Source: an uncultured Candidatus Saccharimonadales bacterium (lineage in GTDB: Bacteria > Patescibacteriota > Saccharimonadia > UBA4664 > SCTI01). Taken from it: a stretch of DNA of 47,020 nucleotides. Under the pieces are notes generated by a model. The model was not told where the DNA came from. It saw only the letters and a program-made list of their open reading frames with translations, and ran no database searches. Position numbers and translations under genes: made by a program. Of the stretch, positions 1 to 41,864 are shown one piece after another (the stretch's first letter is position 1; the number at the start of each line of letters is the position of its first letter). The stretch spans positions 15,872-62,891 of the forward strand of contig CAYRGI010000001.1 of assembly GCA_964423965.1 (NCBI GenBank), read 5' to 3'.

Positions 1-31
1 GACCGGGGTGCGATTCCCCGCAGCTCCACCA
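1..31 (+). ncRNA. 3' end of a tRNA-like RNA (T-arm, acceptor 3' strand, discriminator A, encoded CCA), truncated by the window edge. Most consistent with tmRNA (ssrA) or an Ala-type tRNA acceptor.
   Basis: Positions 4-8 CGGGG, 9-15 TGCGATT and 16-20 CCCCG form a 5-bp T-stem with a 7-nt loop. Next come CAGCTCC (21-27), A (28) and CCA (29-31). The string CAGCTCCACCA matches the 3' terminus I recall for E. coli tmRNA and is close to tRNA-Ala. The T-loop has G where the near-universal U55 would sit, so the assignment is uncertain. Confidence 0.5.
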
Positions 32-5158: not shown

Positions 5159-5548
5159 ATGAGTAAAGGACTAAAAATAGGATTAATTTCGCTTGCATTA
5201 ATAGGGTCAATTATCTTGACAGGTGCAATGCTGGCATACCTTAGCACACAGCCAAATAGCTCTCCGGTTTCATTAGTAACGGGAGCAAACAAGACTTCAA
5301 GCTCAGCCAATGTAATTACGCTTGATCAGCTGGCTCAAAAAAATGGGTTAAATGGAAGCGATTGTTACGTTGCCATTGATACTAAAGTGTACTTGGTGAA
5401 AGGGTTTGCATCTTGGGAGATGGGTAGACATACTCCCGCCGATAGCAGTGTTACTTGTGGCAAGGACTTAACGCAGGCACTACAAGAGTCACCTCATGGA
5501 GCAAAAGTGTTGAGAAAATTGCCTGTTGTTGGAACGCTCCAGAATTAA
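5159..5548 (+). CDS. Membrane-anchored cytochrome b5-like heme/steroid-binding domain protein
   Basis: An N-terminal TM helix is followed by CYVAIDTKVYLVKGFASWEMGRHTPADSSVTCGKDLTQALQESPHG. This fits the bacterial cyt-b5-like pattern (VYDV..W..G.H...G.D.T......H). Confidence 0.5.
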   Translation: MSKGLKIGLISLALIGSIILTGAMLAYLSTQPNSSPVSLVTGANKTSSSANVITLDQLAQKNGLNGSDCYVAIDTKVYLVKGFASWEMGRHTPADSSVTCGKDLTQALQESPHGAKVLRKLPVVGTLQN

Positions 5549-19622: not shown

Positions 19623-19699
19623 TGGTCGGGGTGAAAGGACTCGAACCTTCGACCTCAGCAACCCGAATGCTGCGCGCTAGCCAACTGCGCCACACCCCG
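19623..19699 (-). tRNA. tRNA-Pro (anticodon CGG), CCA encoded
   Basis: The reverse complement folds as: CGGGGTG / TG / GCGC-AGTTGGCTA-GCGC / G / CAGCA-TTCGGGT-TGCTG / AGGTC / GAAGG-TTCGAGT-CCTTT / CACCCCG-A-CCA. This is a 77-nt cloverleaf with a perfect 7-bp acceptor stem. Confidence 0.9.
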
Positions 19700-21337: not shown

Positions 21338-22342
21338 ATGAAGCGTGTCCTTTCTGGAATCCGTTCAAACAACGACCTGACCCTCGGTAATTACCTTGGA
21401 GCTCTAAAGCCATGGGTTGAGATGCAGCCTCAGGTTGGTGATGCCGACAGAACGACCGAGTACTTTTTCTTTGTTCCAGATTTACATACTCTAGTCGCTC
21501 GGCCAGAGCCATCAGTGTTGAGACGAAACACGCTTTCGAACGTCGCCTGGTTCCTTGCAGCAGGTCTGGACCCAGATCGAGTAACCCTGTTTGTACAATC
21601 TCAAATACCGGCTCATAGCGAGCTGGCTTGGATATTCAACAACTTTGTGACTATGGGCGAGCTAAGTCGAATGACTCAGTTTAAAGATAAGTCTCGCAAA
21701 GGTGGATCAGAGGGCCAGTTGGTCGGGATGTTTACATACCCAACCCTTATGGCGGCAGACATACTTTTGTACGATGCAGACGAGGTTCCTGTTGGAGATG
21801 ACCAAGTCCAGCACGTTGAGCTAGCTCGTGATATAGCACAGCGCTTTAACAATCTTTATAATGGCGTATTCAAGCTTCCCAAGGCTGTTAAGCCGGTTGC
21901 AGGTGCAAGAGTTATGAATCTCCAGGATCCAAATTCTAAGATGAGCAAGAGCGACGAAGATTCGAGCGGTGTTATTTTGCTTAGCGATTCATCCGAAACA
22001 ATTCGAAAGAAAATTATGAGAGCGGTAACTGACTCAGGAAGCAACGTAAAAAGGGGCGAGGGGAAAGAGGCAATTTCGAATTTACTTGAAATTTTTTCTG
22101 CCATTACCGGGGACAAAGTGGAGGCAATTGAAAATCGATACAAGGGCAAGGGATATGGAGACTTTAAGAAAGATCTTGCCTCGGCAGTGGTTGATCACCT
22201 AATGCCGATACAGGAAATGCATAACGAGCTTATGAACGACCCCTCAAAATTAAACGCCGTCCTGGAAACAGGTAGAGAAAAAGCTGCCAAAATAGCGGAC
22301 GATAAGCTAGATCAGATCAAGCAAAGCTTAGGACTAATATAA
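21338..22342 (+). CDS. trpS: Tryptophan--tRNA ligase
   Basis: It has a class I fold with a KMSKS motif. GDDQVQHVELARDIAQRFN is typical of TrpRS. Length is 334 aa. Confidence 0.9.
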   Translation: MKRVLSGIRSNNDLTLGNYLGALKPWVEMQPQVGDADRTTEYFFFVPDLHTLVARPEPSVLRRNTLSNVAWFLAAGLDPDRVTLFVQSQIPAHSELAWIFNNFVTMGELSRMTQFKDKSRKGGSEGQLVGMFTYPTLMAADILLYDADEVPVGDDQVQHVELARDIAQRFNNLYNGVFKLPKAVKPVAGARVMNLQDPNSKMSKSDEDSSGVILLSDSSETIRKKIMRAVTDSGSNVKRGEGKEAISNLLEIFSAITGDKVEAIENRYKGKGYGDFKKDLASAVVDHLMPIQEMHNELMNDPSKLNAVLETGREKAAKIADDKLDQIKQSLGLI

Positions 22343-22380
22343 TAATTGTAGTTTTTACTACAGATTTTACTCGAAGACTG

Positions 22381-22410
22381 TTGACATTTTTATACTACTT
22401 ATGCTAATAT
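22381..22410 (+). promoter_or_regulatory. Sigma-70-type promoter for the orphan RNA locus
   Basis: TTGACA (22381-22386), an 18-nt spacer containing TGc, then TAATAT (22405-22410). Confidence 0.55.
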
Positions 22411-22416
22411 GAGGGC

Positions 22417-22919
22417 AATCAAACAAAACAAGGTTTGATTTACCTTGAAAAACAAAAACCTCAATAAAGAAACTCGCAATTACACCAATAGGGAGGCGGT
22501 CCAAACGTCCATCCCTCCGTAGAGGACTGTGGGACCAGCCCGGACTTAGAAGTATCCCCCTTACTTTCTAAATCCGGACTTGTCCTACTGTTCTAGAAGT
22601 GTCATGCAATTAGCACTTTGCTGGAATCTGAGGTAGATCCTGGTCGCGATCATGAATCGTGGTCAGAAACTACCTCAGATACCGTACCAACGGTAGTGAT
22701 TGCACCTGCTACTGCGTAACCTTACCACACGCAGTACTCGGAATCTTTGCACCACCGGTGTAAGGAATCTTATCCGGGGCGACAGGCGCCAACTAAGTAA
22801 CATACATTGGGCGATTCCTAGTTGCCCCGGCACGCTGAAATTATCTCGTATCGGGTTGTTGTAGTATTCGATACATCAATTATCAATAAAAACGTCTGGA
22901 TCCCGGCCAGGCGTTTTTT
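22417..22919 (+). ncRNA. Candidate structured non-coding RNA of about 500 nt, family unassigned
   Basis: No ORF of 60 aa or more appears in any frame across 22343-22976. A promoter lies upstream and an intrinsic terminator at the 3' end. Many clean hairpins are present: TCTGAGGTAG/CTACCTCAGA (10 bp, 22628-22679), TACTGCGT/ACGCAGTA (8 bp), CCGGGGC/GCCCCGG (7 bp), GGGAGG/CCCTCC, CCGGACTTAGAAGT/ACTTTCTAAATCCGG and GTATCG/CGATAC. One core line (22501-22560) counts 60% GC against 38% for the line before it. Confidence 0.45.
22892..22919 (+). terminator. Intrinsic terminator of the orphan RNA locus
   Basis: ACGTCTGG pairs with CCAGGCGT (8 bp including one G-U). TTTTTT follows, and an A-run lies upstream. 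Confidence 0.75.
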
Positions 22920-22976
22920 ATTTATTTGAAGCATAAGCCATAATTTGACATACTTGTATCAAGAAAAGAGGTAATT

Positions 22977-23336
22977 GTGGCTAAAGGTTATGTAGCCAAA
23001 ACATCAACCATTGCATTAGCGGCCGGTGCGGTCTGCTTTTTAGCGCTTATAGCTACGAACCCCTCATCGGTTGGGCCCATTGGTGTAACCATATGGTTCC
23101 TCTTGCTATTTGCAGCCCTCAGCTCCCTGGCGGCTCTCGTGAGCTTCTTAGTAGCCAATAGCATCACTAAGAACGAAGCCAGCAAGTCAGCCGCATGGAG
23201 ACGGGGATTTTTTATAGGGGGCTATATTACTATATTGCTCGCCTTAAGCTCTCTTCAGCAGCTCAACCTTAGGGATGGAATCCTCCTTGCACTATTACTA
23301 CTGTTGGCGGAGTTCTATATGGTGATGCGAAAATGA
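22977..23336 (+). CDS. Small four-helix membrane protein
   Basis: GTG start with AAGAGGT upstream. Four hydrophobic segments. The stop codon overlaps the pheS start as ATGA. Confidence 0.6.
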   Translation: MAKGYVAKTSTIALAAGAVCFLALIATNPSSVGPIGVTIWFLLLFAALSSLAALVSFLVANSITKNEASKSAAWRRGFFIGGYITILLALSSLQQLNLRDGILLALLLLLAEFYMVMRK

Positions 23337-24364
23337 GTAATCTAGATCTTAATAAAGCCTTAAGTGAAATTGAAAAAGCTTCTTCCGAAAAAGAGCTCAA
23401 TGAATTGCGCGTAAAATATCTGGGTAGAAACGGATTAATTACTCAGAAGCTTCGTTCTATTGGTGAGCTTAATGAGTCCGAGCGTAAAAAGGCAGGCGCT
23501 GAAGCAAATAAACAACGTTCACAAATTGAGAGTGCAATCTCTCAGTCGTTGAACAAGATACAACAGCTACAGATTAAAAATGACTTAAAAAATATAAACA
23601 TTGATGTTACCGCCCCGGTTAAACTCCCCATTGAGTGGGGCCATCATCATCCAGTTAATACGGTCATCGATGATATCGTTAAGGTTTTTTGGCAGATGGG
23701 TTACGAAGTAGTCGATGGCCCAGAAGTAGAAACTGAGTGGTACAACTTCGATGCACTACTGGTCGGCAAAGATCACCCCGCTAGAGATATGCAAGATACC
23801 TTCTATCTAGAAGAGGGTAATCTACCAAGAACTCACACTTCTAATATGCAGATAAGACATATGGAGGAAAATAAGCCTCCAATAAGGATCATCTCGGTTG
23901 GGAAGGTTTATCGCAACGAGGACGAGGACGCAAGGCATGTCTGGATGTTCAACCAGATTGAGGGGCTGGTGGTCGACGAAAACATTACGCTAGCTGATCT
24001 AAAGGGTACCTTGCTAGCTATGATGCAAGGAGTGCTCGGCCCCGATACGAAGCTACGATTGAGGCCAAGCTTTTTCCCGTACGTTGAGCCTGGCGTAGAA
24101 ATGGACGCAAGCTGCGTTATCTGTAAGGGAAGCGGCAGAGTTGATGATGCGGAATGCAAAACTTGCTCCGGGACTGGATGGCTTGAGATTGGTGGTGCCG
24201 GCATGGTTCATCCTCAAGTCTTGGTGAATGTGGACATCGACCCCAAGAAATACTCAGGATTTGCATTTGGCTTTGGCGCAGAGCGCATCGCAATGATAAA
24301 GCATGACGTTGGAGATTTACGCGAATTCTGGCGACCAAATCTTAAGTTCCTGGAGCAATTCTAA
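23333..24364 (+). CDS. pheS: Phenylalanine--tRNA ligase alpha subunit
   Basis: Class II motifs are present (HPARDMQDTFY, FRNE-like YRNEDEDARH, GFAFGFGAERIAM). Length is 343 aa. It has an unusual Cys-rich insert, CVICKGSGRVDDAECKTCSGTG. Confidence 0.92.
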   Translation: MSNLDLNKALSEIEKASSEKELNELRVKYLGRNGLITQKLRSIGELNESERKKAGAEANKQRSQIESAISQSLNKIQQLQIKNDLKNINIDVTAPVKLPIEWGHHHPVNTVIDDIVKVFWQMGYEVVDGPEVETEWYNFDALLVGKDHPARDMQDTFYLEEGNLPRTHTSNMQIRHMEENKPPIRIISVGKVYRNEDEDARHVWMFNQIEGLVVDENITLADLKGTLLAMMQGVLGPDTKLRLRPSFFPYVEPGVEMDASCVICKGSGRVDDAECKTCSGTGWLEIGGAGMVHPQVLVNVDIDPKKYSGFAFGFGAERIAMIKHDVGDLREFWRPNLKFLEQF

Positions 24365-41405: not shown

Positions 41406-41864
41406 ATGGTAGTTCCAATAAAGAAGACAGCTATTGCAGTTGGAGTAGTAATGGTATCAGGTGGTGCGCTTATCACCCTTGCACACGACCAGATGCCAAC
41501 TACAAGTTCTAGTGGTAATCAAAGGGGTCAGCAAAACTCTGACGTCCAGGGTGTTGTGGAGAATCCACCCGTGGATGTGAAGATAAATGGCCAGCAGGTA
41601 CCGGTTCAGCCAGGGACAACTAGCTTTGACACCGGTTCTGGAAAAGCCACGGTCAGCGCTTCTAATGATCGAGTTGAGGTAAATCACAAGTCAACATCGG
41701 TTACCCCAGGGAACGTTGATGTAAGAGTCAAGACCGAGAGTCACGGGAACTCTAATACTAGTGCCCGGTATCGGTCTACTACCAGGAGCTCAACAGAGAG
41801 TTCATCGTCTTCGAGTGTAGAAATTTCTACTAAGGGGGACAGCAAAGTAAATATTGAAGAATAA
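41406..41864 (+). CDS. Small secreted or signal-anchored Ser/Thr/Asn-rich protein
   Basis: It has an N-terminal hydrophobic segment, AIAVGVVMVSGGALITLA. It lies between two repeat-module genes, with a 9-nt gap after the upstream stop codon. Confidence 0.55.
   Translation: MVVPIKKTAIAVGVVMVSGGALITLAHDQMPTTSSSGNQRGQQNSDVQGVVENPPVDVKINGQQVPVQPGTTSFDTGSGKATVSASNDRVEVNHKSTSVTPGNVDVRVKTESHGNSNTSARYRSTTRSSTESSSSSSVEISTKGDSKVNIEE

Follow-up and report, generated by a model that had tools for sequence, protein, structure and literature searches.

Bacterial noncoding RNAs (ncRNAs) longer than about 400 nucleotides (nt) with conserved complex folds are rare, the examples being RNase P RNA, transfer-messenger RNA (tmRNA), self-splicing introns, OLE, GOLLD, ROOL and HEARO, and each of them has historically pointed to unusual biochemistry. 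ROOL and GOLLD (RF03087 and RF01998) are structured bacterial ncRNAs of about 580 to 800 nt and of unknown function that were found by comparative genomics; multimerisation is seen for both, as for OLE. On a smaller scale, the C-rich loops of 6C RNA in Actinobacteria and of RsaE/RoxS in Bacillota pair with G-rich, Shine-Dalgarno (SD)-like sequences in messenger RNA (mRNA); these regulators are 60 to 120 nt long and have no architecture beyond two or three C-rich loops. In Gram-positive bacteria, pheST and trpS are textbook targets of T-box regulation. The candidate phyla radiation (CPR) is a huge, poorly understood bacterial branch with minimal genomes, for which the searchable literature describes no large lineage-specific ncRNA. 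Closest in function to the RNA described below, at our best guess by analogy, is OLE RNA (RF01071), which is about 600 nt long and forms a membrane ribonucleoprotein (RNP). The gene for the transmembrane partner of OLE RNA, OapA, colocalises with ole, and bS21 binds an SD/anti-SD mimic in the P6 element, where CCUCCU pairs with an SD-like strand (PMC12054373). Here we analyse a locus between trpS and pheS in a stretch of 47,020 nt (hereafter the window) from an uncultured Candidatus Saccharimonadales bacterium (assembly GCA_964423965.1, contig CAYRGI010000001.1, positions 15,872 to 62,891). Judged from the sequence, positions 22381-22925 very probably hold an independent gene on the + strand for a highly structured ncRNA of about 500 nt, with a strong TRTGn-extended -10 promoter and an intrinsic terminator. 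An earlier note on this DNA had proposed a stand-alone structured RNA of no known class at this place.

The gene trpS (21338-22342; Pfam match tRNA-synt_1b) is followed by a gap of 634 nt before the next coding sequence starts at 22977. The longest open reading frame (ORF) in this gap has 54 amino acids, in agreement with the earlier note, which had given the same gap length and found no ORF of 60 amino acids or more. Its TTGACA-18-TAATAT promoter with an extended -10 was likewise recovered: preceded by TATGc (a TRTGn extended -10), this is the sole sigma-70-type site between 22000 and 23400, and the predicted transcription start of the RNA lies at about 22416-22418. Recounting reproduced the GC-enriched core (60% in line 22501-22560, 38% in the line before), and the classic terminator with its T6 run was found as the note had described it (Table 1). 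Both signals recur in the family. Among the 29 unique homologues scanned for signals, a TTGAC(A/T)-17/18-TGCTAnnnT promoter is present in all, and a clean terminator hairpin with a T-run in at least 23. Predicted RNA lengths among homologues range from 382 to 559 nt (median 497), and the predicted RNA is homologous along its whole length in L081, L113, L083 and others (L numbers denote loci outside the window). The terminator sequences are unrelated between clades. Those of the distant clade (e.g. L088, L093, L112 and L119) are long hairpins that share a GCCGUGAGGC apex with a GNRA-type tetraloop, the remaining stem varying between sequences.

The downstream gene has a separate -10 element (CATAAT at 22939-22944 in the window, TGnGATAAT in most homologues), with an SD sequence and start codon no more than about 30 nt past it. 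In the promoter-like region that the earlier note had placed before this gene, the signal is this -10 element and not the TTGACA at 22946. Two loci separate the RNA from its usual neighbours. In L083 an inserted gene for an HD-domain phosphohydrolase parts trpS from the RNA, and the next gene after the RNA is on the minus strand; in L086 the next gene, for an M20 peptidase, is on the minus strand too. Both lineages have an intact RNA that retains its promoter and terminator, and a small membrane-protein gene is still fused to pheS. Because the next gene lies on the opposite strand in these loci, the RNA is not a pheST leader. The recurrent promoter and terminator, the downstream -10 element and the opposite-strand neighbours together bear out the idea of a stand-alone RNA.

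Folding of 22400-22925 on the + strand with RNAfold gave -190.2 kcal/mol, compared with -134.6 +/- 6.4 for dinucleotide shuffles (z = -8.7); the z-score for the minus strand was -5.2. The clean stems that the earlier note had listed, at least seven, are all in the minimum-free-energy (MFE) structure. Compensatory changes support at least six helices. For hairpin H1, 95.8% of the cells in an alignment of 26 sequences (A2) are paired and 10 of the 24 pairs show changes on both sides; the covariation score was reached by none of 500 shuffles, and slid registers were only 27-55% paired. The H2-H4 region behaves in the same way in the window clade (alignment A5, 12 sequences), with 95.4% of cells paired, double changes in 13 of 27 pairs and a covariation score again reached by 0 of 500 shuffles. 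Within it, both-side changes affect eight of ten pairs in the outer helix of H3 and three of ten in the inner helix. The 5' domain of the distant clade (13 sequences) has double changes in 25 of 65 pairs. Further towards the 3' end, compensatory changes occur in three of the ten pairs of Pb (alignment A6, 11 distant-clade sequences), and in H8 (alignment A3, 26 sequences) four of twelve pairs are exchanged (GC<->CG, AU<->GC, CG<->UA), with GC<->CG flips in four sequences. Frequent G-U pairs, valid only on the + strand, identify that strand as the RNA strand. The covariation in H1, H2-H4, Pb and H8 and these strand-specific pairs support a structured RNA as the predicted product. No pseudoknot or tertiary contact could be supported, and a helix closing the 5' and 3' ends (AGUU/AACU, GUUG/CAAU) was rejected for want of covariation.

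The distribution of the RNA was assessed by several routes. A TrpS-based scan of genome contigs returned mostly non-CPR bacteria and one useful locus, L001, in a complete CPR genome of 1.19 Mb; its TrpS is the closest among GTDB species representatives and is only 55% identical. With nhmmer, a homologue of the gap was found immediately past trpS in L001; the other 79 bacterial trpS loci had none. When contigs were looked up through TrpS relatives (L081-L087 and L124-L132, 55-89% TrpS identity), nhmmer detected the RNA in all 12 protein-anchored Saccharimonadia loci with DNA (L001, L081, L083-86, L124, L126, L128 and L130-132). A scan of JGI metagenomes with a 20-nt H1 loop pattern yielded 32 contigs, of which 23 hold the whole RNA; the remaining nine, and four matches on viral contigs, are not this RNA, being mostly one conserved phage coding sequence and otherwise chance. 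That coding sequence, from marine phages (L090, L094, L097, L107, L111, L114, L122 and L123), has the exact 20-mer TAGAAGTATCCCCCTTATTT by chance and is unrelated to the RNA. The collection came to about 32 unique RNA sequences, 20 recruited by the loop pattern and 12 from protein-anchored loci. BLAST of the RNA against phage and plasmid collections gave no match.

By tblastn, the gene order is nearly everywhere rmuC-trpS-[RNA]-small membrane protein-pheS-pheT, with extra genes sometimes flanking the RNA, and the trpS-RNA-pheS synteny is kept across TrpS identities of 55-93%. The named TrpS relatives, including those of the L001 protein, are Saccharimonadales or Saccharimonadia. The suspicion that the RNA is lineage-specific was thus well placed: relatives exist in the 12 anchored loci and 23 metagenome contigs, all in Saccharimonadia-type loci with conserved synteny, and none turned up in the 79 other trpS loci, phages or plasmids. 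The RNA is also more conserved than the gene beside it. Between the window and L081 it is 93.3% identical, against 76.1% for trpS DNA, and between the window and L113 the values are 96.4% and 78.9%. Substitutions fall in the three phases as 12/12/10 in the RNA and as 41/16/183 by codon position in trpS; the RNA has indels of 1-2 nt and its substitutions lack 3-nt periodicity. The codon-like pattern that would mark a decayed gene was therefore not seen, and compensatory changes were. The RNA is under strong purifying selection across a bacterial class, and it is likely that it represents a previously uncatalogued family present once per genome, at a fixed locus, throughout the class Saccharimonadia.

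Known families were searched in Rfam 15 (4227 families). At gathering thresholds, neither the whole window nor 13 homologous loci gave an RNA-family match for this RNA. Three divergent members (the window RNA, L118 and L084), searched at E <= 10 with lax filters, returned only chance hairpins (microRNA precursors, and Thr_leader and trpB at the terminator). The remaining matches in these Rfam searches were tRNAs and a tmRNA fragment outside the RNA. The covariance model of OLE (RF01071) had no match in these three members, and ROOL, GOLLD, HEARO and raiA had none at either gathering thresholds or E <= 10. A repeat or array of the CRISPR/TIGR-like kind was rejected because there are no direct repeats or tandem arrays, and a conserved small ORF was rejected because frames differ between homologues and codon periodicity is absent. 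No account of this RNA was found in the searchable literature, including the main ncRNA-discovery papers. On the evidence of Rfam 15 and that literature, the RNA belongs to a family of large structured ncRNAs that is undescribed and specific to Saccharimonadia, and the comparison by eye with known cores in the earlier note, from which none had seemed to fit, holds up in the window and in two divergent homologues.

The anatomy of the RNA was compared across the family from 5' to 3' (Table 1). TTGAA occurs in the 5' leader of 26 of 32 homologues. In one subclade (L132 at 5290-5400, L101, L089 and L130) a pentamer, AGUUC, is present in one to six copies just past the transcription start; it is the commonest 5-mer in the leaders (38 occurrences), precedes the UUGAA(A/G) motif and is absent from the window clade. 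It could be a repeated protein-binding site. Helix Pa can be formed in other clades from different sequences (GGUCC/GGACC, CUUCCC/GGGAAG and UUAUCUCCAC/GUGGGGGUAG). The H1 loop core AUCCCCCUU is identical in every homologue, including those found through TrpS rather than by a DNA pattern, and the apical stem UUAG(A/G)(A/G)N/NUUCUAA is sequence-invariant in every member. H3 keeps its shape across the family and not its sequence. After H4, GGTAG(N)GA is conserved across group A, and in the family anatomy H4 is followed by GGUAGNGA. In the distant clade, Pb encloses an A-rich stretch, AAAACAAAAACG, and a small hairpin. The family consensus of H8 is GC-rich, CGGGGCGRC...GYCGCCCCG with the loop CAAYUA. 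Quite probably, the conserved core runs in the order UUGAAA motif, junction with H1 (C-rich loop) and H2-H4, long-range Pb, H8 and 3' tail.

Table 1. Features of the RNA locus; positions are those of the window unless a locus is named
Feature	Position	Strand	Helix in the MFE structure	Remarks
Promoter	22381..22410	+		-35 TTGACA 22381-86; TRTG/extended -10 TATGc 22400-04; -10 TAATAT 22405-10
Predicted mature RNA	22417..22920	+		about 504 nt; from promoter and terminator bounds and fold z = -8.7
5' motif CCUUGAAAAAC	22443..22453	+		conserved, single-stranded; family consensus UUGAA(A/G)
Proposed helix Pa, 5' strand GCAAUUAC	22476..22483	+	22476-83/22696-703 (8 bp)	partner 22696-22703 (GUGAUUGC); would close the multi-helix junction holding H1-H4
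H1, long conserved hairpin	22526..22591	+	22526-54/22562-91 (25 bp, imperfect)	alignment of 26 sequences
H1 apical loop UAUCCCCCUUA	22553..22563	+		core AUCCCCCUU invariant
H2, sequence-variable hairpin	22592..22625	+		distant clade: 5+8 pairs with compensatory changes
H3	22626..22680	+	22626-36/22670-80 (11 bp); 22640-50/22656-66 (11 bp)	two 11-bp helices around a small internal loop
H4 (ACCGU...ACGGU), then conserved AGUGAUUGC	22681..22703	+		AGUGAUUGC is the 3' strand of Pa
H5, variable hairpin	22710..22736	+	22710-17/22729-36 (8 bp)	length and sequence differ between clades
Pb/H7 hairpin GGAAUCUUUGCACC / GGUGUAAGGAAUCU	22740..22770	+	22740-53/22757-70 (13 bp)	simple hairpin in the window clade
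H8, conserved 3' hairpin CCGGGGCGAC...GUUGCCCCGG	22774..22830	+	22774-86/22817-30 (13 bp)	loop CAACUAAGUAA
3' tail CACGCUGAAAUUAUCUC	22831..22847	+		conserved, single-stranded; family consensus ..UGCAAUUAU
Clade-specific hairpin before terminator	22848..22874	+		close relatives only
Intrinsic terminator	22888..22925	+		hairpin 22888-22918, 12-bp stem, 7-nt loop; T6 at 22914-22919
Lineage-specific gene insertions around the RNA	L083 4014-4607 and 5193-6017; L086 4553-5884			

Taken as a whole, the best explanation of the locus is, with reasonable probability, a gene of a new Saccharimonadia RNA family whose product acts in trans as an RNP scaffold. For the mechanism by itself, the scaffold is a tentative choice made by analogy, ranked first ahead of a C-rich-loop regulator, a ribozyme and an unrecognised housekeeping RNA, in falling order of probability. 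The RNA would be the abundant, stable scaffold of a ribonucleoprotein complex. Its invariant elements (the H1 loop with the adjoining UUAGA/UCUAA stem, the 5' motif, the H8 loop and the 3' tail) would be displayed by the shape-conserved helices and may serve as contact sites for proteins or G-rich RNA. Invariant elements borne on helices that are conserved in shape and not in sequence are typical of folded particles with partners and atypical of simple antisense regulators or cis-acting leaders, which favours the scaffold on both counts. As a lead, the H1 apex (UUAGGAG/UUAGAGG, AUCCCCCUU, UUUCUAA) appears to resemble an SD-like strand set opposite a sequence akin to the 3' tail of 16S ribosomal RNA (rRNA).

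Several points weigh against this reading. The mechanism is argued solely from size, architecture and conservation pattern, and the C-run CCCCC is one base off the canonical anti-SD. The recruitment of 20 of the approximately 32 sequences by the H1-loop pattern inflates the invariance of that loop, with which the 12 protein-anchored loci nevertheless agree. The junction-closing helix Pa is kept as a proposal from the predicted fold and lacks statistical support, its RNAduplex score not differing significantly from shuffles (mean z = -0.6). Since the membrane-protein gene stays with pheS in the split loci L083 and L086, its adjacency to the RNA may be incidental. Lastly, RNase P, SRP (signal recognition particle) and 6S RNA were not located elsewhere in the 47-kb window or in the loci of up to 14 kb, which bears on the small chance that this is an aberrant housekeeping RNA.

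Next in rank, and unlikely, is a base-pairing riboregulator in which the C-rich H1 loop AUCCCCCUU would act as a seed for G-rich, SD-like mRNA sites. In its favour, a rigid helix of about 25 bp carries the invariant loop at its end, and the window genome does use G-rich SD sequences (GGAGG, AGGGGG). The best predicted duplex involves the ribosome-binding site of a gene at 41406 (AUAGGGGGUAAG, -16 kcal/mol) but reaches no further than the 1% tail of random window sequence and, with the translation-initiation regions of 34 window genes tested, is not significant; the 12-nt complement of the loop is no commoner in the window than expected by chance, and CCCCC is one mismatch from the complement of canonical GGAGG. 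Moreover, a length of 400-560 nt, at least eight conserved helices and other invariant single-stranded motifs exceed the needs of a small RNA that presents a seed.

A large ribozyme, with an active site built from the conserved junctions and the invariant single-stranded nucleotides where the scaffold reading sees protein-binding sites, is somewhat less probable again. The size of the RNA, its ornate conserved architecture and a nucleotide conservation above that of the neighbouring essential gene are features of the kind that motivate the ribozyme hypothesis for OLE RNA (PMC11332333). The RNA bears no likeness to a known ribozyme class in Rfam, though, and H2, H3, H5 and the inserts vary freely in sequence and length (382-559 nt overall). 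The lack of a supported pseudoknot or tertiary contact also speaks against catalysis, and the gene context suggests no substrate.

A highly diverged housekeeping RNA (RNase P, 6S or SRP RNA) missed by the Rfam models in CPR is an improbable reading, ranked just below the ribozyme. We take the RNase P variant seriously because CPR RNase P RNAs are aberrant, some being found only at an RF00010 threshold of about 5 bits (Lui et al., bioRxiv 10.1101/2020.03.05.979740). A strong promoter, a fixed single-copy locus and universal presence are as expected of such an RNA, and the 5' UUGAAAG is loosely like the RNase P CR-I sequence GGAAAGUCC. Yet no RNase P, 6S or SRP match was obtained at E <= 10 in the three divergent members with lax filters, and for RNase P (RF00010/RF00011) none at gathering thresholds in 13 further loci. 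The RNase P motifs are rare among 31 homologues (CR-I GAAAGUC in two, CR-V ACAGAA in one, the combination ACA(G/A)AA...GCUUA in none). Inspection by eye and by regular expression speaks against RNase P, since P4, CR-I and CR-V are absent and the likeness of UUGAAAG to GGAAAG is superficial. In most members UUGAAA lies about 10 nt or less from the transcription start, leaving no room for P1-P3, and a P4 helix has no conserved 3' partner, the candidate AGUU/AACU not covarying.

The other housekeeping RNAs fare no better. For SRP RNA (RF00169/RF01854) there was no Rfam match, and the GGAAG.AGCAG motif, like the T-loop motif, occurs in 0 of 31 homologues. A 6S RNA (RF00013, no Rfam match) was rejected because 6S forms a rod of about 180-200 nt, whereas the fold here is branched and multi-domain, has a length of 382-559 nt and includes hairpins backed by covariation. 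tmRNA is excluded outright, including its permuted form: ARAGORN finds no tmRNA or tRNA in 31 homologues, and conservation of a reading frame is not seen in the A-rich segment of the distant clade. At window positions 1-31 (+) stands the 3' end of a canonical tmRNA, truncated by the edge of the window (RF00023, 344-374 of the 374 model positions, 30.5 bits, E = 1.2e-8), which indicates that the ssrA gene of this genome lies elsewhere, just upstream of the window. The only Rfam match at gathering level within the window is a tRNA-Pro (CGG) at 19623-19699 (-).

Very unlikely is a cis-acting leader or attenuator of the T-box-like kind, with regulated read-through of the terminator into the membrane-protein-pheS-pheT operon. 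The RNA does lie directly upstream of that operon, is co-oriented with it in most loci and ends in a terminator. For T-box (RF00230) there was, however, no Rfam match, and the T-box motif GGGTGGTACC occurs in 0 of 31 homologues. A separate -10, SD and start codon stand between terminator and operon in nearly all homologues, and in L083 and L086 an opposite-strand gene parts the RNA from the operon with RNA and terminator intact. The lack of relation between the terminator sequences of different clades also means that no alternative antiterminator pairing is conserved. That the gap is non-functional, as a decayed protein gene, a mobile-element remnant or a repeat/hairpin array, is extremely unlikely: elements like repetitive extragenic palindromes or miniature inverted-repeat transposable elements can yield hairpin-rich intergenic DNA and the ORFs here reach at most 54 amino acids, but compensatory changes, conservation above trpS, the lack of codon periodicity, indels of 1-2 nt, and a single-copy, fixed syntenic site with no repeats and no phage or plasmid match refute it.

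The surroundings of the RNA gene hold further features. The coding sequence at 22977-23336 (+) is a GTG-initiated ORF of 119 amino acids that overlaps pheS (23333-24364) by 4 nt, with pheT following. Its product, the small membrane protein, has 119-134 amino acids among homologues and approximately four predicted transmembrane helices; it is conserved in nearly all loci, and comparison with Pfam, NCBIfam and PDB gave no match, only hydrophobic noise. On the other side, a small hairpin (UGUAGU-UUUU-ACUACA, 22346-22362) stands directly past the trpS stop codon, possibly as a weak terminator of trpS; at the equivalent place in L001 (5025-5050) the terminator is clearer. In L124, an IS200/IS605-type Y1 transposase gene (PF01797, 1973-2416) lies about 3 kb upstream of the RNA, an association not found at other loci.

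Because every Saccharimonadia genome examined keeps this 0.5-kb RNA in one fixed place, with a conservation above that of trpS, the RNA is probably important to these organisms. We lean slightly towards regarding it as the founding member of a new class of large ornate ncRNAs, universal and single-copy in Saccharimonadia, that would form the core of a hitherto unknown RNP or ribozyme needed for the epibiotic CPR lifestyle. Such a role would account for its retention, in genomes of about 1 Mb, under purifying selection stronger than that on a neighbouring essential tRNA synthetase gene. A covariance model of the family would close a hole of about 600 nt that recurs in the annotation of Saccharimonadia genomes, and it could also be used to mark the lineage. 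Saccharibacteria can be cultured on their hosts and manipulated genetically by natural transformation (PMC10187176), so the function of the RNA is directly testable.

With T-box leaders the RNA shares a position upstream of an aminoacyl-tRNA synthetase operon and an intrinsic terminator at the end; it has no T-box sequence, specifier loop or Rfam match, is followed by a promoter before the operon and persists beside an opposite-strand gene. The invariant cytosine run in an apical hairpin loop recalls the small RNAs with C-rich loops, from which it differs in having a single such loop within a multi-domain RNA of 500 nt, again with no Rfam match. Like RNase P RNA, it is a structured RNA in the range of 350-500 nt encoded once per genome, and CPR forms of RNase P can escape Rfam thresholds; it lacks the P4 pseudoknot strands, CR-I to CR-V, even a weak RF00010 match, and room for P1-P3. 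ROOL and GOLLD are likewise large and highly structured bacterial ncRNAs, but they are often borne by phages or prophages near tRNA genes, whereas this RNA lies at a syntenic chromosomal locus and had no match in the phage and plasmid collections searched.

OLE RNA differs in that it belongs to Bacillota, whereas this RNA belongs to Saccharimonadia in the CPR and has no RF01071 match at E <= 10. OLE also sits inside an operon, in contrast to an RNA with its own promoter and terminator. The membrane protein of this locus segregates with pheS and has no Pfam, NCBIfam or PDB match, and the C-run here is CCCCC and not the anti-SD CCUCC. The likenesses are nonetheless several. The two are of one size class (about 600 nt for OLE, 382-559 nt for this RNA), both have an ornate multi-helix architecture with invariant nucleotide blocks between covarying helices, and both genes lie beside a gene for a small multi-pass membrane protein, which here is a predicted one that follows the RNA in most loci. 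Both also carry a pyrimidine-rich element like the 16S 3' tail; in this RNA, UUAG(A/G)(A/G)G pairs with UUUCUAA and flanks AUCCCCCUU. Through this H1 apex, with its resemblance to the 3' tail of 16S rRNA, the RNA may interface with translation, as OLE RNA does via bS21.

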